A stretch of DNA of 64,000 bases, taken from contig OZ245003.1 of the NCBI GenBank assembly GCA_965223425.1, positions 2,016,001 through 2,080,000 on the forward strand. Direction: 5' to 3'. The notes beneath the pieces are model-generated. The model was not told where the DNA came from. It searched no databases and saw only the letters and a list, made by a program, of their open reading frames with translations. The stretch's first letter is position 1. Each line of letters begins with the position of its first letter. This document shows, piece by piece, positions 28,610 to 54,173 of the stretch. The translations under genes were made by a program, and so were the position numbers. The stretch comes from Nitrosopumilus sp. GTDB lineage: Archaea; Thermoproteota; Nitrososphaeria; Nitrososphaerales; Nitrosopumilaceae.

Positions 28610-30256
28610 ATAATTCAATAAGACAAAAATAGTTCAATGTCTAACTTTTTTATTTTATAATATGATAGAATCTGATGATTTGAAAATATTTGATAATCAG
28701 GCCCCCTTGATAATAGACTTTATGCATAATTGAATCATAAAAAATTTTTCCGAAAGATTTAGATCCATTTTGATCGCCGCAACAGGTAATGGAATCTTCA
28801 GAACAGACTATACGCAGGCTGCAAAGGGAGCTCAAACAAAAGGACACAGCAATCAAGCAAAAGGACACAGCAATCAAGCAAAAGGACACAGCAATCAAGC
28901 AAAAGGACACAGCAATCAAGCAGAACAACAGAGCAATCAAGCAGAACAACAGAGCAATCAAGCAGAACAACAGAGCAATCAAGCAAAAGGACGCAGCAAT
29001 CAGCAGGCGCGAGAAGACGATTGGCCTGCTGCGCGAGCAGCTGCTGCTGCGCGAGGACAGCCTGTGGGCCGTTACAGATGCAGGCCGCTCTGATACGGAC
29101 ACGTCGCTGCTGCACAGCAGGGAGGTGATCCACGGCATACTGCACAACAGCGCAAAGCTTGCGGGAATTACCTCGTATGACCTTGACCAGTTTGACTACA
29201 TCTGCAACGACTTTGTGGTAGAGTCAAAGAGGCACAACAAAGACGCGCCGCTCTTTTCAGAGGACGAAACACCGGATCCCGGAAACCGCTGCCTGCCTGG
29301 CCGCAGGTCCGTCCTGCTGCTTGCGCTGTTCCGCAGGCGCTCAAACGTGACGCAGGATGCCCTGGGTGTGCTGTTTGATGTTGACCAGTCCACCGTGTGC
29401 AGGTACCTCAAGTTTGCAGATTCCGTGCTGGCAAAGATTCTGCCTACTGCAGACAGGATGGCCCGTCTGGTAAAAAGGGCCGAGACATCAGGGCAGCTAG
29501 AGCAGCTAATGCCGGACAGAACCATCATAATTGACGGCACCGAGGCGGTGCCAAGGCAGCGTCCGCAGGACAAGGATAAAAGAAAAAACACGTACTCTGG
29601 CAAAAAGAAGCGCTTTACGATTAACACCACCATAACAACAAACAGGGCAGGCCTGATACTTGCAGCAGGCAGGTCCTTTGAGGGCGGGACGCACGACCTT
29701 ACCATGATAAGAGAGGATCCGATAGACTGGCAGGTGGTCTAAATCCATGTACAAAAAGGACACGCCCGAAAAGGACAGGATACGGGTACTTGCAGACAAG
29801 GGGTACCAGGGATGCCAATCACTACACGGGAATAGCACTTGAGATGCCGGAAAAAAAGAGGCCGCGGACGGAGCTGACGCAGCAGCAAAAGGACTCGAAC
29901 AAAAGGATCAGCGCCAAGAGGGTAAAGGCGGGGCACGCCATCGGAAGAATAAAGCAGTGGGCGAGGATGACAGACCCGTATGACGGCACGGTAGAGGAGT
30001 TTCACGAGGAGCTGGCTGTGTGTACCGGCCTTGCAAACTTTCAACTGCTGTGGGATGCAAAGAAAAAGCGGCCGTCACTTGGTTATTGACGGCACAGCAC
30101 AGGGTGCATGAGGCACTGCAAGAGTGCGCACGGATTTCTAATTTCTGCGAATTTACAATGATCTTTTGCATCAAAATTAAATAATTTCCTGGACTGGCTT
30201 TGTGTGTCTTGGTAGTGTATGCTGCAGAAAAAATTTGACGGGTCAATTAACCATAT

Positions 30257-31345
30257 GTGAAGGCTCGGAGAAAAGGAATTTTAGATGACACTGGCATCAA
30301 GTCCTTTAAAAAGAAAAAAACAAAGAAACAGATTACCCATGGTTCTGACAAGATCATGTATGTTGGACTAGACGTACACAAGGAGACGATTCAAGTTGCA
30401 GTACTGGATGGCGGCGGGACACTGCAGTCCAACATGAAGATAAAGAACAATCATGCGGAGATCAGGAAAACATTTGCCATGATCCCAAGGGACTCAAAAT
30501 ACGTGCTGGAATCATCATCTGTCTGGTACGGCCTATACCGGTTTCTCACAGATACGCTGGGATTAAATGTAATCGTATCCAATCCGTTTAGCACCAAGGT
30601 AATTGCAACGTCGCTCAAAAAAACAGACAAGGTGGACGCGCAGGCGCTGGCAAATCTATTGAGAGGGGGCTACATTGCACAGTGCCACGTGCCCGACAAT
30701 GACATAGTAGAGCTAAGACACCTTGCAAGACACAGAAACAAACTGGTCAAGACAAGAACAGTCATGAAGAATTCCATACATGGGATACTCTTGCAAAACG
30801 GAATCAAGACAAAATCCGGCGGATTCGGATCCGGCCACGTAAGGGAATTGAGAAAACTGAGGAACTATCGCATAGATTCGTTCCTTGATTCCATAGCGTT
30901 TCTAGACGGGCAGATCTACAAAATGGATGTAAAAACCCGCCGGATAGTCAAAAGGGATCAGAACATCAGTCTGCTGACCACCGTTCCTGGAATAGGGTAT
31001 TATTCTGCGCTTGCAATATATTCGGAGATTGGCAATATCGAAAGATTTTCAGACTCACACAAACTGTGTGCATACGCGGGCATTGTTCCGTCCGTGAGAA
31101 ACTCTGCTGAGACGGTACACCACGGCAGGATAACAAAGAGGGGAAGCCGTATGCTGCGATGGATAGCAGTGGAGGCAATCCAGACCCATACAAGACACGC
31201 GCCTGACAGCGACATTACAAGATTCTACAACCGTCTTGCAAAAAAGAGAGGAAGATCAAAGGCAAAGGTTGCAGCGGCATCAAAGCTGATACGTGTAATA
31301 TATTGGATGCTAAAGGAGAAAAAAGAGTATGTTGCCCAAAAATAA
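30257..31345 (+). CDS. IS110-family DEDD recombinase
   Basis: GLDVH, VLES, KTDKVDA, VPGIG, AYAGIVPSVRNS motifs. Confidence 0.95.
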   Translation: MKARRKGILDDTGIKSFKKKKTKKQITHGSDKIMYVGLDVHKETIQVAVLDGGGTLQSNMKIKNNHAEIRKTFAMIPRDSKYVLESSSVWYGLYRFLTDTLGLNVIVSNPFSTKVIATSLKKTDKVDAQALANLLRGGYIAQCHVPDNDIVELRHLARHRNKLVKTRTVMKNSIHGILLQNGIKTKSGGFGSGHVRELRKLRNYRIDSFLDSIAFLDGQIYKMDVKTRRIVKRDQNISLLTTVPGIGYYSALAIYSEIGNIERFSDSHKLCAYAGIVPSVRNSAETVHHGRITKRGSRMLRWIAVEAIQTHTRHAPDSDITRFYNRLAKKRGRSKAKVAAASKLIRVIYWMLKEKKEYVAQK

Positions 31346-31349
31346 TTTA

Positions 31350-31485
31350 TCACGGTTAGAGTCTGTCTGCGTTTTATGCGTTGAGGTTACACCTCGGGCA
31401 ATTAACTGCGGTTCAATCTAACAAATGGATGAAGAATGGCACTGGGAGTAAGATCCCGAATGGATACTTGTCCGCTCATCTTTTG
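31350..31485 (+). ncRNA. Putative bridge/seek RNA
   Basis: Two stem-capped loops with words matching target (TTTATGCGT, CAATTA) and donor (ATGGATA). Confidence 0.7.
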
Positions 31486-31577
31486 GAATTTGGATCAACC
31501 CTAACGTGAGCCATTCAACACTGTGACAGTTTGCAAGGAATGTTTATAAAGAATTCACATGGATATGCATAAAGTCT

Positions 31578-31829
31578 AGTACACTCTTTAAAAATATTCA
31601 GGAAATAATCGACAAGTTAAAAAAAGATATCATGGTAGGCAAACGAATTAAATTCAAAACTATTCCCAAATACTACAAAAAGAGACATGGGATTGACAAT
31701 GCGTTTCATGTATATTTGCCAAAAGGCATGAGACTAGTCTATTCTATTACTATTTACAATGGTGAAAAGACTGCATTTCTAATGGAATTAGCGGATCATC
31801 ATGCTTATGAGAAAAGATTCAATTATTGA
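31578..31829 (+). pseudogene. RelE/ParE-like toxin, 3' part
   Basis: IPKYYKKRHGIDNAFHVYLPKGMRLVYSI...DHHAYEKRFNY; frame open to the IS end. Confidence 0.6.
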
Positions 31830-31888
31830 TACATAAATGTACATACATATAAATATCATTTGTCTGCATAAGCAGTTGGGAATCACGC

Positions 31889-32185
31889 ATGGCTAAATCA
31901 ATGACTGTTTTGGATTATATTTTGGAGAAAAGTAAAAAATACAATCCTACACTGAGAAGTTTTATTCAGGTCGAAAAATTAGTATTTGAGACTAAAGAAT
32001 TTGAGACCAAACGGGAACTATACAATCTATTGCCCAAAGGAATGCAGTATCCGTCATTTAACTTTATTTTAGATGTTTTGGAAAAACAAAACAAAATCGT
32101 ATTTGATAAAGACGGTTCTTTTTTCTGGATTGGCAATGCAAGCCAAAAGCTAGAAAAGAGTATTAAAAACGCAAAGGAATACTAG
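31889..32185 (+). CDS. Winged-helix protein, putative antitoxin
   Basis: PTL..VEK..KRELYNLLPKGMQY..ILDVLE..NKI. Confidence 0.6.
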   Translation: MAKSMTVLDYILEKSKKYNPTLRSFIQVEKLVFETKEFETKRELYNLLPKGMQYPSFNFILDVLEKQNKIVFDKDGSFFWIGNASQKLEKSIKNAKEY

Positions 32186-32339
32186 ATTCTTTAAAAGAGC
32201 AAAATGAGCAAAGAAAAGTTATCTGGCTTTCAAGATTTGGGTTGATCAAGCCCAACGAGTAATTGTACTCAATTCCGCATGAACCTGAGTTCAATGGTTC
32301 ACGTTATTTTTAAGTAGGGCGCAAAACGGAGATCAACGC

Positions 32340-33122
32340 ATGGTATCAGGCAACCAAATCAGACTCAACCGAATTCTCAAAAAAGGGAAAATGCTTTGCA
32401 TTCCAATGGACCACGGCATTTCAAATGGGCCCATCGAGGGTCTTGAAAATCCCGCCGATACAATCTACAAATGTGAGGGACATGGCCTCACCAGTGTAAT
32501 TATCAACAAAGGGATTCTCAAAACACTGCCTAAACCAACTAGGGTTGGCATTTTAGTTCATTTTTCAAGTAGTACTGCATTATCATTATCACCTAATCGC
32601 AAGATGTTGACTGGAACCGTAAAAGAAGCTGCGGCGATGGGAGCAGATGGCGTTTCATTACACATCAACGTTGGAGGTAAAGAAGAACCAGAGATGTTAG
32701 AGCAGCTTGGCATGACTGCAGATCAATGCCACAAGTGGGGAATGCCGCTTTTGGCGATGATGTATCCGAGGGGGGAGAACATAAAAGATCCTCATGATCC
32801 TGAGATTGTCGGACATGTCGCAAGGATTGGTGCAGAGTGTGGTGCAGATATTGTTAAAACATTATACACTGGCGATGTAGATTCCTTTGCAAGAATTGTA
32901 AAGAGCACACCAGTTCCAATTGTCATTGCCGGCGGACCTAAAGCAAAAACAGATTTAGATATTCTTCAAATGACTGAAGATGCTATGACTGCAGGAGCTA
33001 AAGGTGTCACATACGGCAGAAACATCTTTGCACACAAAAATCCTGAAAAAATGGTAGAGGCACTAGCTGAAATAATTTTCAGAAATAAAACTGCAAAGGA
33101 AGCATTGAAGAAAATTGAGTAA
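32340..33122 (+). CDS. aroA': 2-amino-3,7-dideoxy-D-threo-hept-6-ulosonate synthase (DhnA-type aldolase)
   Basis: PMDHG, MMYPRG, GADIVKT, GRNIF; first gene of archaeal shikimate operon. Confidence 0.9.
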   Translation: MVSGNQIRLNRILKKGKMLCIPMDHGISNGPIEGLENPADTIYKCEGHGLTSVIINKGILKTLPKPTRVGILVHFSSSTALSLSPNRKMLTGTVKEAAAMGADGVSLHINVGGKEEPEMLEQLGMTADQCHKWGMPLLAMMYPRGENIKDPHDPEIVGHVARIGAECGADIVKTLYTGDVDSFARIVKSTPVPIVIAGGPKAKTDLDILQMTEDAMTAGAKGVTYGRNIFAHKNPEKMVEALAEIIFRNKTAKEALKKIE

Positions 33123-34176
33123 GACAAGAGAGCTGATAATTGCACCCAAAATGTCTCAGGCACAACTAGCTAAATTTCTTCCTCAATTAGAAGACGAGGG
33201 AATCAAAATGGTATATCTTGATCCTAGAAAAATAGGCAAGAAAAAGACAAAACTAGAGACAGTTTTCCCCTCAAATGCTGCAAAATACGTAGTACTTGAA
33301 AAAGAGGCAGCATCAAAGCCCAAAGGAAGAAAATCTGGAAGAAAATTCCAGGTATTATCAAATTCAGATATTGAAGATATTCTTTCTGTCGCTAGGAAGG
33401 GGTTAGACTTTGTCATAGTAGAAGTAAAAGACTGGAAGATTATTCCCCTAGAGAACATTATTGCCAAACTTCACAAAGTCCATACCAAAATTTTTGCAAT
33501 TGCAAGAACTCCTGAAGAAGTAAGAAAGATGTTCTCAATTTTAGAGGTCGGAGTAGATGGGGTAATTTTCAGTACATCGTCAATTAATGAGGTAAGGGAG
33601 GCCATGGTGTATCTGGGTACCAGGAGTTTTGACATGAAACCTGCAAGGATCATCGACATTAAGGAAGTGGGGGATGGAGAACGGGTTTGTGTAGATACAG
33701 CTTCGATGCTTCACAAGGGGGAAGGAATGCTAATTGGAAGCAGATCAAATTTTTTGTTTTTAGTCCATAATGAATCAGTGGGATCATCATTTACATCCCC
33801 AAGGCCATTTCGAGTAAACGCAGGTGCTGTTCATTGTTACACGCTTTCACCAGATGGCACAACTAGTTATCTCTCAGAAGTCGAAACAGGCTCTGAGGTA
33901 TTGATTCTTAATTCTAAAGGAAAGGCAAGAAGGGCAACGGTTGGAAGATCAAAGATAGAACGGAGACCGATGTTAATGATTAAAGCATCCGCAGGAGGGG
34001 AGGTAGGAGGAATAATCGCACAGGATGCAGAAACGATTCGTTTTGTAAAACCAAACGGACAGCTAGTATCAGTCACCCACTTGAAGAAAGGGGATACAGT
34101 AATGGTTCATGCAAAGCCTGCTGCCGGAAGACATTTTGGAATGGAAGTTTCAGACGAATACATATTAGAAAAATAA
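33115..34176 (+). CDS. aroB': 3-dehydroquinate synthase II
   Basis: DWKIIPLEN, GERVCVD, RPFRVNAG, GRHFG. Confidence 0.93.
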   Translation: MSKTRELIIAPKMSQAQLAKFLPQLEDEGIKMVYLDPRKIGKKKTKLETVFPSNAAKYVVLEKEAASKPKGRKSGRKFQVLSNSDIEDILSVARKGLDFVIVEVKDWKIIPLENIIAKLHKVHTKIFAIARTPEEVRKMFSILEVGVDGVIFSTSSINEVREAMVYLGTRSFDMKPARIIDIKEVGDGERVCVDTASMLHKGEGMLIGSRSNFLFLVHNESVGSSFTSPRPFRVNAGAVHCYTLSPDGTTSYLSEVETGSEVLILNSKGKARRATVGRSKIERRPMLMIKASAGGEVGGIIAQDAETIRFVKPNGQLVSVTHLKKGDTVMVHAKPAAGRHFGMEVSDEYILEK

Positions 34177-34177
34177 A

Positions 34178-34849
34178 ATGAAATACAAAACTTGCGTATC
34201 GATTGCAGAAAAAACACCGTCCAAAATAAAAAAAGTGCTAAAAATTGCGTTAAAGAAATCAGACTATGTCGAAGTCAGGTTTGATTTTTTAAAGATTGAG
34301 CACATTCCTGAAGCATTAGAGTTAGTCAAAAAAGATCTAAACAAAACTGTCTGTACACTAAGACCAAAAACAGAAGGAGGAAAATTTCCAGGGACTGAAA
34401 AAGAACGAATTGCAGTTCTAAAGTTGATTGCAGAGTATAATCCGTTTTTACTAGATGTGGAATATAACACGTTAAAGAAGAGCACAGCGTTGAGAAAATA
34501 TCTAAGATCAACAAAGACGAAACTGCTAGTATCATGGCATGACTTTAAAAAAACACCAGATTCAGCAGGCCTAAAAAAGAAGCTGAACCAGATGAGCAAA
34601 TTCTCATCAAACGTAAAAATTGTAGGTACTGCAAAGACAGCAAATGATTCAAACAGAATGCTAGAGTTGTACAGCAAAAAAGGGAAGAATAACCTGATAT
34701 CATTTGCAATGGGGGATTTGGGCAGGATTTCAAGGATTTTGTGCCTGTATTTGGGCAGCCCATACACCTATGTCTCATTAGGAAAGGCAGTTGCTCCAGG
34801 CCAATTCAGTGTCGATGAAGTAAAGAAAATTACAAGTCTGAAAAAATAA
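34178..34849 (+). CDS. aroD: 3-dehydroquinate dehydratase type I
   Basis: EVRFD, TLRPKTEGG, SWHDF, AMG, APGQ. Confidence 0.92.
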   Translation: MKYKTCVSIAEKTPSKIKKVLKIALKKSDYVEVRFDFLKIEHIPEALELVKKDLNKTVCTLRPKTEGGKFPGTEKERIAVLKLIAEYNPFLLDVEYNTLKKSTALRKYLRSTKTKLLVSWHDFKKTPDSAGLKKKLNQMSKFSSNVKIVGTAKTANDSNRMLELYSKKGKNNLISFAMGDLGRISRILCLYLGSPYTYVSLGKAVAPGQFSVDEVKKITSLKK

Positions 34850-34892
34850 ACAGTTGAGAGTTTAAATCAATCATATAGCTCAGAAAAATAAG

Positions 34893-35714
34893 ATGGGAAG
34901 AACATTTGCAGTTATAGGAGATCCAATTGATCATTCACTGTCTCCAAATATCCATAGTGCAGTGTTTAGAGAACTGGATTTGGATTGCTCATACATCGCT
35001 TATAGAATTCCAAAAGGGGAATTGAAAGAAGGAATCGAGGGGTTAAAGAAAATCAATATCGACGGATTCAACATAACAATACCTCATAAAGTTGAGATGA
35101 TGAAATATTTGGATAAAATTGACGAATCATGTAGTTTGATTGGCGCAGTCAACACAGTTGTGAACAAAGAAGGGACACTCAAGGGATACAACACAGACAT
35201 GGACGGTTTTCTAGAGCCGTTTAAGAAAAGGGAATTAAACATCGGAAATTCCAGAGTTCTACTGCTTGGGGCAGGGGGGGCTGCAAGGGCAATAGTTGCA
35301 GGACTGGCAAAAGAAAAAGCAAAGAGCATAACTGTTGCAAACAGAACACTAGAAAACGCAAACAGTCTTGCAGAGTTTGCAAAAAAAATTGGGCTAGGTT
35401 GCAACACGATGAAAATTGAAGATGTGGGGGGTTCTGCCAAAGACTATGACATCATTGTCAATGCAACATCAGTGGGGTTAAAGAACGAGTCAAGCCCAAT
35501 TTCTTTAGAAGGGATTAGTGAAAAAACAGTCGCTTATGACATCATATACATGCCAATGAACACGGATTTTGTCAAACAGGCAAAGGATAAAGGAGCAACT
35601 GTCATTTTCGGTTATGAGATGCTTTTAGGTCAGGCCGTCAGGGCATTTGAGATCTGGCACGGTATGGAAGCACCTTATAATGTAATGAAAAAAGCATTGC
35701 TAGGGGGATTTTGA
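34893..35714 (+). CDS. aroE: Shikimate dehydrogenase
   Basis: GDPIDHSLSP, NITIPHK, NTD, GAGGAA. Confidence 0.95.
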   Translation: MGRTFAVIGDPIDHSLSPNIHSAVFRELDLDCSYIAYRIPKGELKEGIEGLKKINIDGFNITIPHKVEMMKYLDKIDESCSLIGAVNTVVNKEGTLKGYNTDMDGFLEPFKKRELNIGNSRVLLLGAGGAARAIVAGLAKEKAKSITVANRTLENANSLAEFAKKIGLGCNTMKIEDVGGSAKDYDIIVNATSVGLKNESSPISLEGISEKTVAYDIIYMPMNTDFVKQAKDKGATVIFGYEMLLGQAVRAFEIWHGMEAPYNVMKKALLGGF

Positions 35715-36568
35715 TGGCAAAAGCAAAGGCTACAGTGCACGGGGCAATCTCTCTTGTAAATGCGATTGCAAACCAGAAAGGCGCCACATTAGGAATTTCA
35801 TTAAAGGTGGAGGCAGTAGTCAAAACGGCCCCAGGAAGAGGGATTGTACTTCAATCCAAAAACAAAAGCCTCAGTTCCCGCTTGATCAACAAAACCGTAG
35901 AGAAGATTGCTCTAAAAAAAGGCTTGGAGCAGAACAAAATAACAGTTACGCTTGATTCAGAAATTCCAACAGGGTTCGGACTAAAAAGTTCAAGTTCAAT
36001 TTCATCAGCAGTGGCGCTGGCATGTGCAAAAATATTCAAGCCAAAGCTAACTGATCAGCAAATTTTACTTGCGGGGGTTGATGCATCAATTGAATCAAGA
36101 GTGAGCATTACAGGGGCATACGATGATGCGTGCTCCTGTTATTATGGAGGATTCAATGTAACAGATAATGCAAGAAGAAAAAGAGTTCACTTTGAAAAAG
36201 GCCCAACTAATTTAATCGCAGTAATATTTATCCCTAAGAACAGAAAAAGAGGCAACCTGAAGGAACTCAAAATTCTTTCATCCGTATTTGAAAACGCATG
36301 GGAGTTGGCAAGAAAAGCAAACTATTGGGAGGCAATGAACATTAATGGATTGGCCACTGCTTCAATTTTAAACTCAGATTCTAAAATAATTACAAGTTTG
36401 ATCGACAAAGGTGCACTTGGAGCATCAGTTTCTGGAAATGGGCCTGCAGTTGCAGCAATAACAAAAAAAGGAAATGAATCAAGCATCAAAAGGGTGTTCT
36501 CAACGCTAGAAGGAAACGTTATTGTCTCTAAAGTAAGTAACAAAAAGGCTGAAGTTCATGAATTGTAA
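35711..36568 (+). CDS. aroK: Archaeal (GHMP) shikimate kinase
   Basis: IPTGFGLKSSS, TGAYDD, SGNGPA. Confidence 0.93.
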   Translation: MMAKAKATVHGAISLVNAIANQKGATLGISLKVEAVVKTAPGRGIVLQSKNKSLSSRLINKTVEKIALKKGLEQNKITVTLDSEIPTGFGLKSSSSISSAVALACAKIFKPKLTDQQILLAGVDASIESRVSITGAYDDACSCYYGGFNVTDNARRKRVHFEKGPTNLIAVIFIPKNRKRGNLKELKILSSVFENAWELARKANYWEAMNINGLATASILNSDSKIITSLIDKGALGASVSGNGPAVAAITKKGNESSIKRVFSTLEGNVIVSKVSNKKAEVHEL

Positions 36569-37832
36569 AGTTGAAAAATCAAAAATTTCCGGACAAATAG
36601 TTTGCCCTCCAAACAAGAGTTACACGCACAGAGCAATTTTTCTTGCATCACTTGCAGGAAATAACAGCAGGGTGGATAACGTATTGCTGTCAGCTGATAC
36701 TATGGCAACAATTGATGCTTGCAGGAAATTTGGCGCAGGGATAGAAATCAGGGATTCATCAATTATTGTCAAAAATCCCATAAAACTAGGCACAAATGTG
36801 CCTGAAATTAACACAGAAAACTCTGGAACTACAATTAGAATTGCATCAGGAATTGCAAGCCTATTTTCTGAAGAGATTACTCTAACGGGGGATAAAAGCC
36901 TACAAAAAAGACCGATGCAGCCTCTCCTAGACGCGCTATCAAGCATGGGTGCGCAATGCAGCTCATCAGGCGGGAGTCCACCAATAAAAATCAAGGGGAA
37001 AATTTCAGGGGGCAGCGTAACAATTCCAGGAAGTTTCTCCAGTCAATTTATTTCTGCATTATTAATCAGCGCACCACTGACAGAAAACGGAATCAATCTT
37101 ACCATAGAGGGAAGTTTGGTGTCAAAACCATATCTTGATGCAACGATTGCAACAATGAGAAAGTTTGGGGTGTCTGTACAGACGTTAATCCCTTACAAAA
37201 AATACAACATACCACCACAAGTTTACAAAAATGCCGTATTTACAGTTCCAATTGATTTTTCAAGTCTGGCACTACTTCTCTCAGCTGCAGTGCTTAACGG
37301 AGAAGAAGTTATCATCAAAGGAAACATTGGGAACTTGCCACAAGGTGATGAAGCCTTTATTGATATTTTAGAACGGTTGGGAGTAAGTGTTAGTGTCAAT
37401 GATGATGATGATGAAGTCAAAATCAAATCGCCTGAAAAATTGAAAGGTGGGAAATTTGATTTAAGTAATTCGCCAGACTTGCTTCCACCTCTTGCAATTT
37501 TGGCATTAAATACATCAAATCCAATTGAGATAGTTAACGTAAAACATGCAAGATTAAAGGAAACAGATAGAATTGCAATCACAGCTAGAGAAATGGCAAA
37601 ACTTGGAATAAAAGTTGAAGAAAAAGACGACGGATTAATTTTAGAATCATCAGAAAGTCTAAAGGGGGCAGAACTAAACTCTGAAAATGATCATAGATTG
37701 TTTATGGCATTTTGTATAGCTGGAATGTATGTAGGGGATTGCACCATAACAGATCCAGAATCAGTAAGAGTTTCGTATCCAAACTTTGTAGATGAGATGA
37801 ACAGTCTTGGAGCTAAAATTCAAAACCAATAG
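36558..37832 (+). CDS. aroA: EPSP synthase
   Basis: KSYTHR, NSGTT.R, SSQF, RLKETDRI, DHR. Confidence 0.95.
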   Translation: MNCKVEKSKISGQIVCPPNKSYTHRAIFLASLAGNNSRVDNVLLSADTMATIDACRKFGAGIEIRDSSIIVKNPIKLGTNVPEINTENSGTTIRIASGIASLFSEEITLTGDKSLQKRPMQPLLDALSSMGAQCSSSGGSPPIKIKGKISGGSVTIPGSFSSQFISALLISAPLTENGINLTIEGSLVSKPYLDATIATMRKFGVSVQTLIPYKKYNIPPQVYKNAVFTVPIDFSSLALLLSAAVLNGEEVIIKGNIGNLPQGDEAFIDILERLGVSVSVNDDDDEVKIKSPEKLKGGKFDLSNSPDLLPPLAILALNTSNPIEIVNVKHARLKETDRIAITAREMAKLGIKVEEKDDGLILESSESLKGAELNSENDHRLFMAFCIAGMYVGDCTITDPESVRVSYPNFVDEMNSLGAKIQNQ

Positions 37833-38162
37833 AATTATTTTCAAAAAAAATCAACTAGAGAGGCTAATGGCGCGACCCTGTATAGAGTGAAAAGCATTCT
37901 CCTCACCCACAACGCTTTGGCGCAGATAACATGTATTTTTCGCAGGGCCGCACAAATTATGCGTTAAAATTTGCATGTTTTTCCATATAATGTATACATT
38001 ATTATGATATTTAATAAGATATTGTAATTATTTCATATAATTATCGATAACGGTATAATTTTCATCTGTTCGTAGTCTGTTCCCCAAAACGAGTCACAAA
38101 GACAATGGAATTTTTTCCAAAAACAGAATGAGGAATTATAAGCACCGCTTAGCTTTGATATT

Positions 38163-43440: not shown

Positions 43441-43666
43441 CATTCTAAATTAACTCAAATCCGGTTCTTTGTGCAAAGGTAATTTTTCTGATTGAATTTG
43501 AGATCCCGTTCAAAATAGGCGTGACTAGCAGTTTAGAGCCGGGAGAATTTGAAACATTTTGTTTAATCTCAGTTACTTGTTGTGTTAATTCAATTTCAGC
43601 TGGAACTAGCAAAATATAATTTCAAAGTTTTTGGTTTTCAGATTTGAGGCTACCTCAGACATTTTG

Positions 43667-43858: not shown

Positions 43859-43975
43859 TAAAATAAAATGGGTGTCTAACTATAAAACAGCTATCAGAAA
43901 AATTCACTGCCCATGTGAAAAGGTTTGAGACTTAAAGGAAAAATAGATTAGGACTAACAACAACAACAAAACAGT

Positions 43976-45271: not shown

Positions 45272-45274
45272 TTC

Positions 45275-46652
45275 CAGTCACCCAGAACAGCATATGCAGT
45301 TAAACTCATGTAAGCCTTGGGTTCTCCCATACGAAATCACCCCTTATCCTACTGCGGACCATTCTCAGTGTGCTTTGCTGAATCAGGATGTTTCTGATTT
45401 GTCTTGCATCTTCTTATACTTTCTTTGCGTCAACTCATGATTCTGTGTGCGGTATTCCTCCATGTTTGTTAGCATGTGCCAGATTATCTCAAGCATCATC
45501 TGCCTTGCAGCTGCTATTCTTGCCTTTTGTTTTCTTCTTCTCTTTGCGATTCTTGAATAAAATGATTCCATCCTTGGATCAAATCGTATCGTGGTGTTTG
45601 CAGCCTCCACCTGCATTGCGCAGCCATGCAGAACCACGTTTTGTTATTCCGCCGCCTCCTTTTTGCGTCTCTCCGCTGTCCCTGTGCGATGGTGCAAGTC
45701 CCGCATATGAGACGAGTTTCTCTGCTGTTGCAAATCTGTTAATGTCAACTATCTCGGATATTATTGTCAGTGCCGTGACATAGCTTATTCCAGGCATTGT
45801 CATGACTAGTCTTGCCCTTTCATCCTCGTTGCTAATTGCAGCAATCTTTGTCTCAAATGTGTCAATCTGTTTTTGATTCATCTCAATGTTTTCAAGATAT
45901 GCGTCCATTGCCATCCTGTCAACTTCTGTCAGACTGATTTCATGCAGCCATCTGATTCCCTTCTGTGAGAATGTCTTTATTGTCGGTTGGGTGTAGTCGT
46001 ATTTTGCAAGTATTGCATAAATCATGTTTTTGTGTTTTGAGACACTGTGTACGCGATTCAGTCTTGTTCTTACCAGACTGCGCAGGTCCCGATAGTATTT
46101 TTCTGGTACAAATGACTCGTACACCATGTCAGATCTTAGCAGGTCTGCCAACACGTCTGAATCGAGCTTGTCGTTTTTGAGTTTTGCCTGTGCTATTATC
46201 TTGGTCTTTGCAGGGTGTGCAAGAACAGTATCAATGCCGTTATCCTCCAGTGTGTCATGCAGTCTAATCCAGTAGTTGGCAGTTGATTCGCACACTGCTT
46301 GCATGTCTTTGCCGTATGTCTTTTTGACGTGTCTGATAAAACCCGTTATTCCACGTGTGGTGTTCTCAAAGCTTGACTGTTCCAGCTTTTTTCTGGTATC
46401 TTTTTTTACTGTTGCAACGCACCTGTTTTTGTGAACGTCAATTCCTATGCTGATCATATTATCACCTCCTTTCTGATCAAATTGCCTGATTCTGCGGAAT
46501 GCTCCCATTCACCATCATCTGTGTGGTATTTTGTTTTCCGCTCACTTTGAGTTAGTCTGTGAAACGCCCTTGTACATGGCAGTAACCCTTCAACTCTCAG
46601 GCCCAACAGTAACGATACATCACAGGATATAGAAAAGATTTCGTATAACGTC
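45275..46652 (-). mobile_element. IS110-family element type B, transposase 46457-45383 with one frameshift near 45605
   Basis: IGIDVH, CEST, KNDKLDS, YAGLAPSHRDSG; TC at both junctions (45273-74, 46651-52). Confidence 0.88.
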
Positions 46653-46776
46653 TGTCAAGTTATCGGGCGTTTAGTCTAAATCTTTTACCTGTAAAGGGTC
46701 GGGACATGGGTTCTGTAACAAATTGGGGACATGAATACGGATCTTCTCTGAATTGAAAATTTTCTCTTTCTCCACG

Positions 46777-46893
46777 TTAACTGTCGGGTGTTTTTGAGGC
46801 TATGATTCCTATTTTGATCAGTTTTGCCTTTAGTTCAGTTGTTGTCATTTTATTTCCCTTCATGGAATTACATGATTGGCATAATAGTTGTTT
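46777..46893 (-). pseudogene. C-terminal fragment of HNH nuclease truncated by IS66
   Basis: KQLLCQSCNSMKGNK. Confidence 0.6.
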
Positions 46894-46894
46894 G

Positions 46895-47367
46895 GTACGT
46901 GTTCACCTGATTTAGCTCAGTTTTACATATATTTTACAATCTCGGCCACATAGCCAATATTCTTGTTCTTCCAAGTGGTGACACACGAGAATAGATTCCC
47001 CATCCATTCCATGGTATCCACAGATCTCAGCCCGCCACGGATCTTTCTGTGCACTACAATCTCGCGCAATCCGCGCTCGGCGGCATTGTTGGTAGGCGGG
47101 ATGCCGGGGTCTGATACGAACCGGAACATGTCAGGCGCCGCCCTGCTCAGCTTTTTCATGAAACGCTCCAATATGGGATTATCCGAATATTTCATGATCA
47201 GCTGCCTTATCCGCCGCAACAGTCTGCAGCAGAGATCCGTTCTGTTTCCGGCCGCACCGCATCCGTCCCTGTACATTCTTTTTAGCACATCCCGTACGCA
47301 CCTGCATTGCGGGTCGTCATATTTGACGCACAGGTCACGTGCCTCGCGCAGTATGTGCGACCAGCAC
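46895..47367 (-). mobile_element. IS66-family remnant (3' end of tnpC)
   Basis: CWSHILRE and PPTNNAAERGLR..RKI motifs; end GTACGTGTTCACC. Confidence 0.8.
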
Positions 47368-48774
47368 TAGCTTGAACACATGATAACCACCTCGTCGTAG
47401 ATGTAGTGATGAATCGACCCCTGTATGCATATGGGCCTTGCGCCCTTGAGCTTGAATGGGGCAGTCCGAGCTGCTGTGTGACTGGGCCTTGCGCCCTGAT
47501 AGGTGTATGCAGCTTCCGATCCGTCAAAGATCCGAAAGGAGGTGATAGAAAGGATGAGCAAAGGAACAATCAGCATAGGAATAGACATTGGAAAGAGAAA
47601 ATGTGACGTATGCGTCATGGACTGGAAGGGAAAGGTTTTGCATACTGGCCAGTATCAAAACACCGTCTCAGATGCAGACAGATTCGCAGAACAGACGGCA
47701 CTCAGGTATTCTGCCAGAAGATGTCAGGCAGCATGCGAGACGACGGGCAACATGTGGAACATCACATACGGCGCCTTTGAGAGACATGGAATCGACATAA
47801 AGCTTGCCAACACCTACAAGATGGCAATAATTGCAAAGACGGGAAAGAAGACAGACAAGATTGACGCACAAAAGATAGCAAGCGTATTGAGGATGGATTC
47901 AATACCAGAGTGTTATGTGCCGTCAGCTGACACAAGAGGAGTCCGGGCCATGGTCAGACAGAGGATCAGGACCGTACAGGACAGGACACGCGTGATAAAC
48001 CGCGTCCACAGCCTGCTTGACAGATACGATGTGAAAATCGATGCCTCTGAGATGTATGCCATAAAGGCCGTAGAACAGATGGAGTCTGCAAGCCTGGGAT
48101 CCGTACATGACGAAATAGTACCGAGTCAGTGTGCCCGGCAGATAAGGAGCCTTACCGAGGAGATAAGACACATGGATGAACACCTGGAAAAGGAGGCATC
48201 GCTAAACGAGGATGCAAAACTTCTTGCCAGCATGACTGGCATGGGAATCTACTCTGCACTGCTGCTTGCCGTCAAGATAGCCGACATTGTCAGATTCGAG
48301 ACCCCAAAGAATCTCGTCTCATGGGCAGGCCTGTGTCCGGCGATACGCCAGTCAGGCGACAAAATCTACATGGGCAGAATCAAAAAGCTTGACACCAACA
48401 GTCTGGTCAACTGGGTCATGTGCGAGGCTGCAAACACGGCGGTAATTCATGATACTAGAATGAAGGCAGTTTACGAGTCTTCCAAGAGAAGACATGCAGG
48501 CAAGCATGCACTTGCCATAGTGACTGTCGCCAACAAGATGATAACCATAGCGTGGCACATACTCAAGACCAGGACACCATACGAGTCCCGAAACGAGGGA
48601 CTGTACAAACGCAAGCTTGCCAAGATGGAAAAGGCACGCCAGAGGTGATTGGTATGTGTCATCCCACCAAATTATCTCTCCAGCGTTAGCTATAAATCTT
48701 GTACCGTACAAGTAGGCACGGATCGGAAATACAACTGGGATGCGTTGCCGCAACACGTCCGGTGGTTAACATAG
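47368..48774 (+). mobile_element. IS110-family element type C
   Basis: TAG at both junctions (47368-70, 48772-74); long structured left end. Confidence 0.8.
47554..48648 (+). CDS. IS110-family DEDD recombinase
   Basis: GIDIG, CETT, KTDKIDA, WAGLCPAIRQSG. Confidence 0.92.
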   Translation: MSKGTISIGIDIGKRKCDVCVMDWKGKVLHTGQYQNTVSDADRFAEQTALRYSARRCQAACETTGNMWNITYGAFERHGIDIKLANTYKMAIIAKTGKKTDKIDAQKIASVLRMDSIPECYVPSADTRGVRAMVRQRIRTVQDRTRVINRVHSLLDRYDVKIDASEMYAIKAVEQMESASLGSVHDEIVPSQCARQIRSLTEEIRHMDEHLEKEASLNEDAKLLASMTGMGIYSALLLAVKIADIVRFETPKNLVSWAGLCPAIRQSGDKIYMGRIKKLDTNSLVNWVMCEAANTAVIHDTRMKAVYESSKRRHAGKHALAIVTVANKMITIAWHILKTRTPYESRNEGLYKRKLAKMEKARQR

Positions 48775-49989
48775 GTGTTGCATAACACGCCTAAAATCTA
48801 CCACGCAGTTTAAACTGACCAACAAACACACATGTTTCTGACCGAAAAAGCTTTAGATCATGACAGCATGCTCAAAGTGTTGACCGACAATGCAAAGTAC
48901 GTCCGGCGGGGTGCAGAGCTGGCAGTACAGTACAACCCTGACTGGAACTGCGAGGTAAGGCAGGCCAACTGCGGCAAGGAGGAGGGGGCACCGTTCCAGT
49001 ATGCAGACACCATGATCATATGACAGCCGCACTGAGAACCGCCCTCGGCGTTCCATTCAGGCAGCTGTCCGGGATGGCAGATAAGATGCTTGAGGGACAC
49101 GACTCGCCGCACCATACCACGCTGTGCAGAAGAATGGAGAAATTTGACATTAGCATTCACGGCAACACCATACACGTTCATGACGCATCCCGGCACGTAA
49201 CCCTGATGGCCGATGCCACCGGACTCAGACAGTGGAACCGCGGAGAATGGATACGCGACAAGTGGAAGGCGGTGGTGTTGCGCAAGGGATATGTCAAGAT
49301 GCACCTGCTGGCAGATGCGGACACCGGCATGATACTTGCTGCAGTAGTCACAGACGACAGAACCGGCGACTCGCCGGTACCGCAGGATCTGCTGGATCAG
49401 GCAGTGGCAGAGCCGTTTGCCAAGGCCGGGAAGGACGATGCGAGAAAGAGGCCAAACATGCTTGCAGACGGAGTCTCTCCGCTTGCCGGTTCGGCAGGCG
49501 GCAAGGAGGAGGAAGAAGAAGAAGAAGTGCCAAGTGCCAGCCTGCTTGCAGACGGCGCATATGCATCCAAGAAAAACATGAATGCGTGCAGGAAGAAGGG
49601 CATCAAGCCGCTTGTGCCACTCAAACCATGCTTTGCTGAGAGCGGCAGGGGCGATGACGGCAAGGAGTGGAACCTGGCCGTGAAAGAGCAGCTTGGGGGC
49701 AGCGCAGACATGCACGTCAAGGGACTGACAGTGGAACAGAAAAAGGAGAACAGAAGATACTGGAAGTCTACTGTAGGGTACGACAAAAGGTGGAGAATAG
49801 AGGTAATCATCTCCGCATTCAAGCGAATGTTCGGAGAGCATCTGTTCTCACGCAAGTGGGAGAGCATGGTAAGAGAGGTAAGGATGAGGATTGCCATGTA
49901 CAACCGGTGGGTGGCAGCAACAATGTAGGGGAGCAGGTGCATGGATCCTGGAATGAACGGGATGTGGTCAGGCCGAGTTATGCAACACA
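48774..49989 (+). mobile_element. IS5-family element, transposase split 48832-49023 / 49020-49928
   Basis: TIRs GTGTTGCATAAC / GTTATGCAACAC; DATG, KMHL, DSP, ADGAY, Y.KRWRIE; CTA flanks after removing IS110 type C. Confidence 0.85.
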
Positions 49990-50004
49990 CTACCGGCTAA
50001 CGGA

Positions 50005-51351
50005 TTAGTCTGTCAGTGACGGATCAGACACCCTTCCCATGAACAGGATGGTGCCGCTCTCGTCGTCCTGTATGATAAAGATGAATGGGTGGTCTGCGGT
50101 AAATTTTGGTGGTGGTGGAGGCATCGACTCCATTCCTATTACTATTGTAGTCACGGCTGCAGCCTCTGTCCCCTCTTCGTTTACGTTCACATATGCGTCC
50201 TGAACCGCCTTTGAGACAAACAGGTTTCTTCCAGATACGTCTGCAATGCCTGAGAGGTCTGCTATTTTTTTCTTAAAAGCATCTGTCATTCCAAGGCTTG
50301 TCAAGCTGGGTTCTAGATCATAATGTGTCTTCATCTCAAACTTTGGAATAGACACTATCACCTCAGATTCTGTCATACCTTGCTGCCATTTCTGCAAGAG
50401 TTTGGTCGAAAGCATCTCCTGTAATCGTTTTATGCCGTCCCTCTCAGAGGGCAGTACCACCAGCATGGAGAGTCTGTCGCCCTTGTAGGGCATCTTTAAC
50501 ACCTGCACGCCATCGCCTTCGGCATAGTTGAATGTTCCACGCACGTTCATAAAGTCAGTCCTGATGCTGTTACTGTTTGTCCAAAAATCCGACTCGCGTG
50601 TATCCTCTGCCGGGAACTGCGTCACCCAAGTTCCCTTAAAGTATATGGCATTTGCCAGAACCATCGCAGTAAGGTAACTTACAGCATCAGGTGCTAACAC
50701 CTTCTTTATCTTGCCGTGCGTTTTCTCAGACGCCCATGCGTTTATCTTCCCTACACCATCGCCCAAAAAATTGACGCGTTCGGCTTTGGCAAGGTACGTC
50801 TTGCGTATTATGTCCATGTATGAGTCATACGGAGAAAACCAGTCGGCAATCCAGACGGAGTTTGCAAGCTCCAGTGTGGCGTGCGGATCATCACGGTTCA
50901 AGGACGGCATAATGTGGGCAGTGGCGTTGTGACGCAGGGCCACGTCTGAGTCAAACCCGAAGACCTGCTGAATCTGCTGTGCCGTGTTTTCACGCGCCCC
51001 CTCGTACAGCATGGAGAATGCCACATACATGCTAAGAGGCGAGAAGAAGATGTTGTCATCATCATTGCCTGATACCTGTCCGTAAAAGTCCATGGCAAAG
51101 TCGTTGTTTGCCATGGCTATGCTTTGCGGGATCTCTGAGGGCTCCCCCTGAAGGCTGAAAGATATGTTATTTGGGATGTCAATGAGTGTTGAAACAAGAG
51201 GGGCCATGTATGTCCCAAAGTCAGACACGTAGACCTGTACAATATGGAGAGAAGGAATGATAATCTTAACTAAGAATTCATTATCAAGCATCATCACAAA
51301 AAAGGCCACTATGGCTACAAATATCAGGATTGTAACATATCTTTTCTTCAT
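50005..51351 (-). CDS. Serpin (serine protease inhibitor) with N-terminal membrane anchor
   Basis: NIFFSPLS, NAIYFKGTW, IPKF, hinge EEGTEAAAVT, FTADHPFIF. Confidence 0.95.
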   Translation of the reverse strand: MKKRYVTILIFVAIVAFFVMMLDNEFLVKIIIPSLHIVQVYVSDFGTYMAPLVSTLIDIPNNISFSLQGEPSEIPQSIAMANNDFAMDFYGQVSGNDDDNIFFSPLSMYVAFSMLYEGARENTAQQIQQVFGFDSDVALRHNATAHIMPSLNRDDPHATLELANSVWIADWFSPYDSYMDIIRKTYLAKAERVNFLGDGVGKINAWASEKTHGKIKKVLAPDAVSYLTAMVLANAIYFKGTWVTQFPAEDTRESDFWTNSNSIRTDFMNVRGTFNYAEGDGVQVLKMPYKGDRLSMLVVLPSERDGIKRLQEMLSTKLLQKWQQGMTESEVIVSIPKFEMKTHYDLEPSLTSLGMTDAFKKKIADLSGIADVSGRNLFVSKAVQDAYVNVNEEGTEAAAVTTIVIGMESMPPPPPKFTADHPFIFIIQDDESGTILFMGRVSDPSLTD

Positions 51352-51364
51352 GAGACTTTATGCG

Positions 51365-52680
51365 TATCCATGTGAATTCTTTATAAACATTCCTTGCAAA
51401 CTGTCACAGTGTTGAATGGCTCACGCTGGGGTTGATCCAAATTCCAAAAGATGAGCGGACAAGTATCCATTCGGGATCTTACTCCCAGTGCCATTCTTCA
51501 TCCATTTGTTAGATTGAACCGCAGTTAATTGCCCGAGGTGTAACCTCAACGCATAAAACGCAGACAGACTCTAACCGTAATAAATTATTTTTGGGCAACA
51601 TACTCTTTTTTCTCCTTTAGCATCCAATATATTACACGTATCAGCTTTGATGCCGCTGCAACCTTTGCCTTTGATCTTCCTCTCTTTTTTGCAAGACGGT
51701 TGCAGAATCTTGTAATGTCGCTGTCAGGCGCGTGTCTTGTATGGGTCTGGATTGCCTCCACTGCTATCCATCGCAGCATACGGCTTCCCCTCTTTGTTAT
51801 CCTGCCGTGGTGTACCGTCTCAGCAGAGTTTCTCACGGACGGAACAATGCCCGCGTATGCACACAGTTTGTGCGAGTCTGAAAATCTTTTGACATTGCCA
51901 ATCTCCGAATATATTGCAAGCGCAGAATAATACCCTATTCCAGGAACGGTGGTCAGCAGACTGATGTTCTGATCCCTTTTGACTATCCGGCGGGTTTTTA
52001 CATCCATTTTGTAGATCTGCCCGTCTAGAAACGCTATGGAATCAAGGAACGAATCTATGCGATAGTTCCTCAGTTTTCTCAATTCCCTTACGTGGCCGGA
52101 TCCGAATCCGCCGGATTTTGTCTTGATTCCGTTTTGCAAGAGTATCCCATGTATGGAATTCTTCATGACTGTTCTTGTCTTGACCAGTTTGTTTCTGTGT
52201 CTTGCAAGGTGTCTTAGCTCTACTATGTCATTGTCGGGCACGTGGCACTGTGCAATGTAGCCCCCTCTCAATAGATTTGCCAGCGCCTGCGCGTCCACCT
52301 TGTCTGTTTTTTTGAGCGACGTTGCAATTACCTTGGTGCTAAACGGATTGGATACGATTACATTTAATCCCAGCGTATCTGTGAGAAACCGGTATAGGCC
52401 GTACCAGACAGATGATGATTCCAGCACGTATTTTGAGTCCCTTGGGATCATGGCAAATGTTTTCCTGATCTCCGCATGATTGTTCTTTATCTTCATGTTG
52501 GACTGCAGTGTCCCGCCGCCATCCAGTACTGCAACTTGAATCGTCTCCTTGTGCACGTCTAGTCCAACATACATGATCTTGTCAGAACCACGGGTAATCT
52601 GTTTCTTTGTTTTTTTCTTTTTAAAGGACTTGATGCCAGTGTCATCTAAAATTCCTTTTCTCCGAGCCTTCACATATGGT
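51365..52680 (-). mobile_element. IS110 (IS1111-type) type A copy 2
   Basis: Near-identical inverted copy of 30250-31565; TA core. Confidence 0.92.
51585..52673 (-). CDS. IS110-family DEDD recombinase
   Basis: Differs from 30257-31345 at only a few residues. Confidence 0.95.
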   Translation of the reverse strand: MKARRKGILDDTGIKSFKKKKTKKQITRGSDKIMYVGLDVHKETIQVAVLDGGGTLQSNMKIKNNHAEIRKTFAMIPRDSKYVLESSSVWYGLYRFLTDTLGLNVIVSNPFSTKVIATSLKKTDKVDAQALANLLRGGYIAQCHVPDNDIVELRHLARHRNKLVKTRTVMKNSIHGILLQNGIKTKSGGFGSGHVRELRKLRNYRIDSFLDSIAFLDGQIYKMDVKTRRIVKRDQNISLLTTVPGIGYYSALAIYSEIGNVKRFSDSHKLCAYAGIVPSVRNSAETVHHGRITKRGSRMLRWIAVEAIQTHTRHAPDSDITRFCNRLAKKRGRSKAKVAAASKLIRVIYWMLKEKKEYVAQK

Positions 52681-54173
52681 TAATTGAATCATAAAAATTT
52701 TTCCGAAAGATTTAGATCCATTTTGATCGCCGCAACAGGTAATGGAATCTTCAGAACAGACTATACGCAGGCTGCAAAGGGAGCTCAAGCAGAAGGACAC
52801 AGCAATCAAGCAAAAGGACACAGCAATCAAGCAAAAGGACACAGCAATCAAGCAGAACAACAGAGCAATCAAGCAGAACAACAGAGCAATCAGGCAAAAG
52901 GACGCAGCAATCAGCAGGCGCGAGAAGACAATTGGCCTGCTGCGCGAGCAGCTGCTGCTGCGCGAGGACGGCCTGTGGGCCGTTACAGATGCAGGCCGCT
53001 CTGATACGGACACGTCGCTGCTGCACATCAGGGAGGTGATCCACGGCATACTGCACAACAGCGCAAAGCTTGCGGGAATTACCTCGTATGACCTTGACCA
53101 GTTTGACTACATCTGCAATGACTTTGTGGCAGAGTCAAAGAGGCACAACAAAGACGCGCCGCTCTTTTCAGAGGACGAAACACCGGATCCCGGAAACCGC
53201 TGCCTGCCTGGCCGCAGATCTGTTCTGCTCATGGCGCTGTTCCGCAAGCGCTCAAACGTGACGCAGGATGCACTGGGAGTGCTGTTTGATGTTGACCAGT
53301 CCACCGTGTGCAGGTACCTCAAGTTCGCAGATTCCGTGCTGGCAGGGATCCTGCCTACTGCAGACAGGATGACCCGTCTGGTAAAAAAGGCCGAGACATC
53401 AGAGCAGCTAGAGCAGCTAATGCCGGACAGAACCATCATAATTGACGGCACCGAGGCGGTGCCAAGGCAGCGTCCGCAGGACAGGGATAAAAGAAAAAAC
53501 ACGTACTCTGGCAAAAAGAAGCGCTTTACGATTAACACCGCCATAACAACAAACAGGGCAGGGCCTGATACCTGCAGCAGGCAGGTCCTTTGAGGGCGGG
53601 ACGCATGACCTTACCATGATAAGAGAGGATCCGACAGACTGGCAGGCGGTCTAAATCCATGTACAAAAAGGACACTCCGGAAAAGGACAGGATACGGGTA
53701 CTTGCAGACAAGGGGTACCAGGGATGCCAATCACTACACGGGAATAGCACTTGAGATGCCGGAAAAAAAGAGGCCGCGGACGGAGCTGACGCAGCAGCAA
53801 AAGGACTCGAACAAAAGGATCAGCGCCAAGAGGGTAAAGGCGGGGCACGCCATCGGAAGAATAAAGCAGTGGGCGAGGATGACAGACCCGTACGACGGCA
53901 CGGTAGAGGAGTTTCGCGAGGAGCTGGCTGTGTGTACCGGCCTTGCGAACTTTCAACTGCTGTGGGATGCAAAGAAAAAGCGGCCGTCACTTGGTTATTG
54001 ACGGCACAGCACAGGGTGCATGAGGCACTGCAAGAGTGCGCACGGGTTTTGAATTTCTGCGAATTTACAATGATCTTTTGCATCAAAATTAAATAATTTT
54101 CTGGACTGGCTTTGTGTGTCTTGGTAGTGTGTGCTGCAGAAAAAATTTGACGGGTCAATTATGCATAAAGTCT

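Follow-up and report, generated by a model that had tools for sequence, protein, structure and literature searches.

An archaeal IS1111-type element at a fixed position within the terminal inverted repeats of an IS5-family-type insertion sequence in Nitrosopumilus

The interrupted terminal repeats and the inserted element

The stretch of DNA analysed here, referred to as the window, comprises 64,000 nucleotides (nt) of contig OZ245003.1 from a Nitrosopumilus sp. genome (the study genome, G000) that consists of 2 contigs totaling 2.64 Mb and encodes an archaeal AmoA. A repeat search of the window revealed an inverted repeat of 1351 nt (30227-31577 and 51353-52703, 99% identity) that contains two copies of an insertion sequence (IS) of the IS1111 type, each lying within a terminal inverted repeat (TIR) of a second, host IS. 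The host IS is termed "ISL2-like" following the initial annotation, a label supported to the level of IS5-family-type domains: HTH_Tnp_4 and DDE_Tnp_4 were detected above the Pfam cut-offs, whereas the NCBIfam IS5 model NF033581 scored 25.8 bits against a cut-off of 140. The relevant features, with open reading frame lengths in amino acids (aa), are as follows.

25020-25038, + strand: target site TCAATTATGCATAAAGTCT, uninterrupted, within the right TIR of ISL2-like copy 1, the empty-site reference in the window
28715-30247, + strand: body of ISL2-like copy 2, IS5-family-type HTH_Tnp_4 and DDE_Tnp_4, longest frame 322 aa
30248-31563, + strand: IS1111-type element copy 1, 1316 bp, TAACCAT-ATGTGAA...TTCACAT-GGA, within the right TIR of ISL2-like copy 2
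30255-30261, + strand: left sub-terminal inverted repeat ATGTGAA, after the 7-nt extension TAACCAT (30248-30254)
30257-31345, + strand: DEDD transposase/recombinase gene, 362 aa from GTG
31554-31560, + strand: right sub-terminal inverted repeat TTCACAT, before the 3-nt extension GGA (31561-31563)
31564-31577, + strand: 14-nt tip (TATGCATAAAGTCT) severed from the right TIR of ISL2-like copy 2
51353-51366, - strand: 14-nt tip (TACGCATAAAGTCT, minus strand) severed from the left TIR of ISL2-like copy 3
51367-52682, - strand: IS1111-type element copy 2, 9 differences from copy 1, within the left TIR of ISL2-like copy 3
51585-52673, - strand: transposase gene of copy 2
52683-54173, + strand: body of ISL2-like copy 3, longest frame 288 aa

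Direct reading of the junctions, with a slash marking each boundary, gave ...GACGGGTCAAT/TAACCATATGTGAA...TTCACATGGA/TATGCATAAAGTCT/agtaca for copy 1 and, on the minus strand, ...TATGATTCAAT/TAACCAT...CATGGA/TACGCATAAAGTCT/catgaa for copy 2. In the neighbouring ISL2-like copy 1, which ends ...GACGGGTCAATTATGCATAAAGTCT, the right TIR is intact and reads GGGTCAATTATGCATAAAGTCT at 25017-25038. Both elements lie between TCAAT and TATGCAT (or, equivalently, at the shared TA), 14 nt from the TIR tip, with the left end directed toward the interior of the host IS and the right end toward the tip, where C replaces T (TACGCAT) in the case of copy 2. Because the element itself begins with TA, this dinucleotide stands on both sides of it, with no target duplication. 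The interior flank of copy 1 is of the right-TIR type (GACGGG; TTTGACGGG) and that of copy 2 of the left-TIR type (TATGAT; TTTTTATGAT); this contrast is the one that distinguishes right from left TIRs, so copy 1 is assigned to a right TIR and copy 2 to a left TIR. The initial annotation had described two insertions that share both the exact base and the orientation with respect to the TIR, and the junctions agree with that description, the coordinates of which were correct.

The sub-terminal inverted repeats are perfect over 7 bp (6-9 bp in related elements), and extensions of 7 nt on the left (TAACCAT) and 3 nt on the right (GGA) lie outside them when the ambiguous TA is counted as part of the left end, a layout also present in 28/33 related loci with called ends. 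Non-coding sequence amounts to 218 nt downstream of the transposase gene (31346-31563) versus 9 nt upstream of the GTG codon, or 108 nt if translation starts at the ATG at 30356. For IS1111 elements, sub-terminal repeats of 7-17 bp are given in excerpts of PMC11208160, and excerpts of PMC11187229 describe repeats of usually 11-13 bp, extensions of 7 (or 6) and 3 nt, and a long non-coding region downstream.

The transposase matched PF01548 (E = 3.8e-24) and PF02371 (E = 3.2e-22), the Pfam IS110-family DEDD/RuvC-like and Transposase_20 domains, and aligned end-to-end with NCBIfam NF033542 ("IS110 family RNA-guided transposase") at 241 bits against a cut-off of 140. The family model aligned from residue 35, and relatives from approximately residue 16. 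The sole matches in the PDB were the ISCro4 and IS621 transposases. The closest named transposase in plasmid records was that of ISHvo10 from Haloferax volcanii (36.7% identity over 91%, E = 2e-55); all matches in these records were below 60% identity, the best bacterial one among the matches listed being at ∼34%. The domains, sub-terminal repeats, 7/3-nt extensions, 3′ non-coding region, and order of the guides described below all agree with the earlier assignment of the element to the IS1111 type of the IS110 family.

A blastn search of the whole genome identified three full copies, namely the two in the window and one at C1:323144-324462, and a 40-nt remnant of the 3′ end at C1:66866-66905 that has been cut off by another IS. 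Each of the four insertions is followed by a TIR tip, with base and orientation identical throughout; TCAAT and ISL2-like interior sequence precede each of the three full copies, the remnant retaining just its tip-side junction. The third full copy occupies a left TIR. The initial annotation had anticipated that nearly all genomic copies would be found at this site, and the flanks of the three full copies and the remnant bear this out.

The intact 19-nt target has 90 matches in the genome at ≤3 mismatches. Thirty-one are exact and all of these are empty (17 left-type and 14 right-type ISL2-like TIRs); a further 16 are ISL2-like TIRs with 1-2 mismatches, 39 are the ends of an 80-bp unit resembling a miniature inverted-repeat transposable element (MITE; TCGATTAYGCATAAGGTCT), and 4 are other sequences. 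No exact match to the 19-nt target was found outside ISL2-like TIRs on the two contigs of the genome. Given that 4/4 insertions sit at the target and that no exact target exists outside ISL2-like TIRs, chance placement is excluded. Sites of the exact type occupied now or formerly number 4/35, and no insertion was found in TIR variants in which the crossover TA is altered (TCAATTGTGCAT, 6 copies) or in which the match to the B guide (see below) is altered (TCGATTA, the 39 MITE ends). Contigs from four public sequencing runs over 30000-31800 contained only the known copies, empty TIRs, and a junction shorter by 2 nt; in assembled contigs of this kind a circle junction would not be expected to appear. 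Separately, one ISL2-like right TIR, at C1:31730-31748, reads TCAATTAACCATAAAGTCT, with the first 7 nt of the element (TAACCAT) in place of TATGCAT; this may be the footprint of imprecise loss between two CAT triplets or may reflect two chance substitutions in a diverged copy.

Predicted bridge/seekRNA and its guides

The non-coding region downstream of the transposase gene contains a predicted bridge/seekRNA organized as two modules, each comprising a stem, an internal loop, and a hairpin. Its parts are as follows.

31354-31473, + strand: predicted bridge/seekRNA of copy 1
31354-60/31417-22, 31367-71/31407-11, 31427-31/31469-73, and 31443-47/31454-58, + strand: stems
31373-31381, + strand: T guide TTTATGCGT, 5′ strand of the target (first) loop, complementary to the right target flank (top strand)
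31399-31406, + strand: B guide CAATTAAC, 3′ strand of the target loop, identical to the left junction CAAT-TA-AC
31436-31439, + strand: 5′ side of the donor loop, ATGG, complementary to CCAT of the left end
31460-31466, + strand: 3′ side of the donor loop, ATGGATA, identical to the final 5 nt of the IS with TA added
51457-51576, - strand: predicted bridge/seekRNA of copy 2

Alignment of 20 related 3′ non-coding regions on a common scaffold (alignment A1) yielded a consensus of four helices with 21 pairs, 13 of which show compensatory changes. The fraction of alignment cells that were paired was 95.7%, as compared with 86.0% in shuffled alignments and 31-46% for slid partners, and the observed covariation score was reached by 0/500 shuffles.

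The T guide lies 5′ of the B guide in this element and in its relatives, and the same order, with the top-strand guide 5′ of the bottom-strand guide, is described for IS1111 elements in excerpts of PMC11187229. Since the B guide has the sequence of the left junction, its partner would be the bottom strand. For the T guide, complementarity to the variant flank of window copy 2 extends over 9 nt (ACGCATAAA). Across 18 elements, the longest exact match between guide and flank averaged 6.6 nt for the element's own flank versus 4.7 nt for those of others in the case of the T guide, and 7.3 versus 4.9 nt in the case of the B guide. When one element was taken per distinct IS (n = 14; L042 and L045 were retained instead of their sister copies L023 and L027, and the right ends of L029 and L030 were re-called with a loop-derived motif), 0/20000 random pairings reached the observed means. 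Targeting had been described as sequence-programmed in the initial annotation, consistent with guide segments that match the TIR and co-vary with the flanks across relatives.

The donor loop behaves in a similar manner with respect to the ends of the element. In 12/14 elements with independently called ends, its 3′ side repeats the final 5 nt of the IS and the 2 flanking nt, and it follows the end variants GGA, AGA, and GAG; for the 5′ side, complementarity to the left-end sequence CCAT or CTAT is seen in most elements. Together, the predicted target and donor loops follow the two-loop logic of bridge RNAs.

The most probable interpretation, held with considerable confidence, is of an IS1111-type element, resident in an ammonia-oxidising archaeon, that moves as a circle via RNA-guided site-specific recombination. 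According to this mechanism, the DEDD/Ser recombinase would bind an RNA of ∼120 nt from the 3′ non-coding region of the element. One internal loop would provide two guides, of which TTTATGCGT would pair on the right side of the crossover with the top strand and CAATTAAC on the left side with the bottom strand; together these guides would spell the TIR of the IS5-family (ISL2-like) IS, and the second loop would match the two ends of the element itself. Recombination at the shared TA would then leave the IS with TCAAT on one side and TATGCAT on the other, always in one orientation and at a distance of 14 nt from the tip, and the circle junction would read ...CACATGGA joined to TAACCATATG... Left and right TIRs would both be struck because they share the same sequence. 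The likely benefit to the element would be a landing site that does no harm, exists in many copies, and is replenished by transposition of the host IS. By analogy with the IS110/IS1111 family, for which RNA guidance is experimentally established (excerpts of PMC11187229 and PMC11208160), the RNA would be expected to be made, bound by the recombinase, and required for movement.

Several observations weigh against this interpretation. At the protein level, the C-terminal motif is GIVPSVRNSA, in which Ser aligns with the Ser of the SG pair of ISCro4 and is then followed by Ala in place of Gly; occasional TA variants of the GL-P----S(T)G motif have been described in the IS1111 group (PMC11187229). 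The 7-bp sub-terminal repeats stand at the bottom of the reported family range. At the right junction of the third full copy (C1:323144), TA is missing (GGA/TGCAT), a loss of 2 bp. That all 31 exact targets are empty indicates either low activity or recent arrival of the element. With regard to the RNA, the fold of the single sequence is unexceptional (z = -1.61), an Rfam scan of 30000-31800 at E values up to 10 returned no match, and none of the 7 public-run entries carrying all or part of the stretch is listed on record as RNA. The T guide matches the common TIR over 7 contiguous nt only (GCATAAA), and in 4 relatives the right end was placed by the loop-derived motif, which is circular for the donor-loop comparison.

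A TTTATAAA-like box is located at 31543-31550, 14 nt from the right end of the IS and 3 nt before the right sub-terminal repeat, and similar boxes (TTATAAA, TATAAAA, and TTATATAA) occupy about the equivalent place in the right ends of relatives. The sequence suggests that circle formation would place the TTTATAAA box ∼20-25 nt upstream of the GTG start codon (IS position 10), where it could act as a junction promoter for a leaderless mRNA.

Related elements and alternative explanations

A family-level genome search detected related transposases in 21/301 genomes (E ≤ 1e-60), and a related-locus search of the genome contigs returned two distant loci only. In three other genomes (G084, G059, and G041), the same type of TIR is split by related elements with transposases of 46-62% identity. 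When the elements were removed in silico, the motif GCATA-NNN-TCT was found across the junction at 7/36 related loci, all in these three genomes: G084 has two such loci, one left and one right TIR (TCAA/TATGCATA(A/C)GGTCT); G059 has four (ATGCA/TACGGTCT or ATGCA/TAAACTCT); and G041 has one (ACGCA/TACGGTCT). The register of the crossover differs, as the elements of G059 and G041 lie six bases nearer the tip (TGCA/TACGGTCT) than those of the study genome and G084 (TCAA/TATGCATA..GTCT). Two sub-variants in G059 have guides that are one base apart (TTAGACTTT versus TTAGAGTTT) and occupy targets ending ...CGGTCTAA and ...AAACTCTAA, respectively; on sequence grounds, these appear to represent natural single-base retargeting.

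An ISL2-like transposase gene lies ≤700 nt from the junction in 8/36 loci, three of which lack the motif (G216, G054, and G120). In G084 the tip motif occurs in 62 copies versus 11 for a control pattern, and these tip motifs are paired at spacings of ∼1.3-1.4 kb and ∼85 nt. Within the flanks of only ∼1.4 kb covered at the relatives' loci, the opposite TIR of the host IS was mostly not found, and other relatives occupy sites that are not visibly IS ends. In a tree of 37 transposases, from which eight rows with internal stops or short frames were omitted (L003, L024, L043, L059, L060, L062, L063, and L064), the backbone is unresolved and TIR-targeting elements appear in at least 2-3 places, such that ancestral and repeated origins of TIR targeting are not separable.

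A tentative and rather doubtful extension of these comparisons is that an archaeal bridge-RNA clade has been a long-term parasite of one IS5-type family across ammonia-oxidising genera, rewriting its guides to track the end-repeats of its host. If this were true, the unoccupied TIR variants (TCAATTG... and the MITE variant TCGATTA...) would be escape alleles in an RNA-programmed arms race between two transposons.

Two of the related loci have features of their own. L030 (G079:C20) stands between two copies of a 27-nt direct repeat (TATTATTCGTTTTGAAATTTCAGGTAT), whereas target duplication is absent from the other elements. L003 (G015:C116) is inserted within the reading frame of another transposase-like gene; restoration of its target, GGAATTGATACTGATGCAATTTGGATG, yields the translation GIDTDAIWM, and its right junction carries TG rather than TA.

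The insertions might be explained by one original event followed by passive spread, either because an ISL2-like IS moved with its passenger or through recombination or gene conversion between ISL2-like copies, which are numerous and could recombine; indeed, the two left-TIR composites show no difference in the 109 nt of host IS that adjoin the junction. However, one right and two left TIRs have been struck, each with the matching interior sequence, and the host bodies are >10-fold more divergent than the inserts, the left-TIR composites differing at 4/1316 IS positions versus 74 alignment columns of the 1491-nt host IS (columns that include a 21-nt indel, with differences beginning 110 nt from the junction). 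ISL2-like copies are mutually 87-97% identical, as compared with 99.3-99.6% for the inserts. On the tip side, just 14 nt are shared between insertion loci, so gene conversion is implausible, and relatives with transposases of only 52-54% identity occupy the same TIR type in other genomes. Passive spread of a single insertion therefore appears very unlikely, and the divergence of the left-TIR composites accords with the independent events, in a left and a right TIR, that the initial annotation had proposed. Target-site duplications of the ISL2-like IS, scored by eye, were of 3 bp in ∼3/8 pairs, too inconsistent to decide whether the segment between the two element copies has been inverted in the past.

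Two further explanations concern how the site is chosen and what is gained by choosing it. The protein alone might select the target, whether through the recombinase or through contact with ISL2-like transposase on its ends, in which case the complementarity of the 3′ region would be incidental. The guide matches are indeed short, at 7-9 nt, and the RNA is so far predicted only; against this stand guides at homologous positions of a conserved structure that co-vary with their own flanks, the single-base natural retargetings among relatives, and the experimental evidence for RNA guidance in the family (excerpts of PMC11187229 and PMC11208160), which together render protein-only targeting highly improbable. 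According to the other explanation, the element has been selected as a hyperparasite, akin to genome defence, that silences or immobilises the ISL2-like family, rather than for the use of a safe landing site; the initial annotation had likewise proposed that the host IS is immobilised. In favour of this view, the TIR is split 14 nt from its tip, which should leave that end of the host IS disabled, and the variants with an altered crossover TA or B-guide match are unoccupied. Yet only 4/35 exact-type sites are or have been occupied, relatives of the same clade also target sites that are not IS ends, and the interrupted hosts, with longest frames of 322, 288, and 292 aa, are no different in lacking a long frame from 12/14 uninterrupted full-length copies, a frame of ≥430 aa being present in the other 2/14. 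A selected silencing role is thus unlikely, disablement of the split end would be a by-product, and the choice of site seems to be explained more economically by a landing place that is safe, present in many copies, and self-renewing.

Known systems and the genomic setting

The closest precedent in habit is provided by IS4321/IS5075 in the repeats of Tn21, which are reportedly likewise elements of the IS1111 type, with sub-terminal repeats and a fixed position and orientation inside the TIR of another transposon. Targeting of transposon TIRs by elements of the IS4321/IS5075 type was reportedly the subject of a 2003 paper by Partridge and Hall, going by its title. The target there belongs to the Tn3 family, whereas here the host is archaeal, the target is an IS5-family IS, and derived MITE-like ends are present in the genome; the transposase is also only distantly related to those of bacterial members. 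A target logo for IS4321 is mentioned in the excerpts of PMC11187229. By analogy, the present element would be one of a known kind, namely guide-RNA-programmed IS1111-type elements residing in the TIR of another transposon, of which the archaeal example appears to be new.

Excerpts of PMC11187229 indicate that ISEc11, ISKpn4, ISPa11, and ISPst6 share with this element the downstream non-coding region, the 7/3-nt extensions, a top-strand guide 5′ of a bottom-strand guide around a small hairpin, and natural reprogramming among relatives. They differ in their targets, which are a linear site, attC, or repetitive extragenic palindromic (REP) sequences and not IS ends, in sub-terminal repeats of usually 11-13 bp versus 7 bp here, and in that function was established by experiment there and is inferred here. 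With IS621, as far as excerpts of PMC11208160 and the structure 8wt6 and related entries describe it, the element shares a two-loop RNA with a target loop and a donor-end loop, a dinucleotide common to donor and target (TA here), and the recombinase fold family (E = 1e-8). In contrast, the RNA of IS621 lies in the left end, its sub-terminal repeats are 2-3 bp, and it belongs to the IS110 group, whereas the RNA is in the right end here, as is reported for IS1111 members in the same excerpts. ISHvo10 is likewise archaeal and is placed among more diverged IS1111-type relatives in excerpts of PMC11187229, but it is described there as having long non-coding regions on both sides.

A literature search for IS110 together with hyperparasitism gave no match, and targets of the IS-end kind may already be included in the supplementary tables of PMC11187229 and PMC11208160; a search for Thaumarchaeota with bridge RNA or IS1111 gave none among the matches listed. 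The element would provide a natural archaeal example of guide-RNA-programmed transposition aimed at the ends of another transposon. In addition, ∼20 related elements with naturally differing guides and targets, including single-base retargetings and a register shift, constitute comparative material from which rules of pairing could be worked out for the IS1111-type bridge/seekRNAs, a group that has received less study than IS621. The clade-wide tie to one IS type, in combination with natural retargeting, is the part worth following. The element also shows nested IS-in-IS structures in these IS-rich archaeal genomes to be specific events and not random pile-ups, which bears on annotation and on the reading of rearrangements.

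The two inverted element copies bracket 19.7 kb of housekeeping genes, with shikimate-pathway and thiamine genes among them, together with a serpin gene. This segment is chromosomal core and not a composite transposon, and homologous recombination between the two inverted copies could invert it. The serpin gene (50005-51351, - strand; PF00079, E = 3.7e-116) adjoins the severed TIR tip at copy 2. Two further, distant IS110-family genes also lie between the inverted copies, at 47503-48648 (+ strand) and ∼45513-46475 (- strand); one is 27% identical to the studied element, and the other is 35% identical, with an in-frame TGA.

The study genome contains a second IS1111-like family, with a transposase ∼50% identical and ends TAATCTT-ATGTGCC...GGCACAT-GGA, at C1:1158746-1160123, 1500504-1503332, 1202767-1204074, 2373637-2375014, and 1804144-1804994. 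The right flank is TA followed by YG(A/T)GTTCA in the five copies read, and a sixth, truncated copy abuts the same unit. This flank is the tip of a MITE-like unit of ∼75 nt (5 copies, one with the IS on both sides). In one case it adjoins a multi-copy IS of the DDE_Tnp_1 type. The left flanks are not conserved. To judge from these flanks, targeting of TIR tips seems to be a wider habit in the study genome.

The N-terminal coding part of the ISL2-like transposase contains 21-nt tandem repeats (28719-29002, 22394-22614, and 52672-52913) that encode the heptads KQKDTAI and KQNNRAI and vary in number between ISL2-like copies. Another multi-copy IS (∼0.97 kb, >30 copies, ending ...AATGTGCTAACTA) interrupts ISL2-like copy 1 at 22545-23686. 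The same ∼0.97-kb IS, at C1:66054-66869, is the one that cuts off the IS1111-type remnant at C1:66866, so that nesting there is three levels deep. Elsewhere in the window, at 13704-14500, a long tandem array with a 9/18-nt period gave rise to 53 register-shifted matches of 270 nt.

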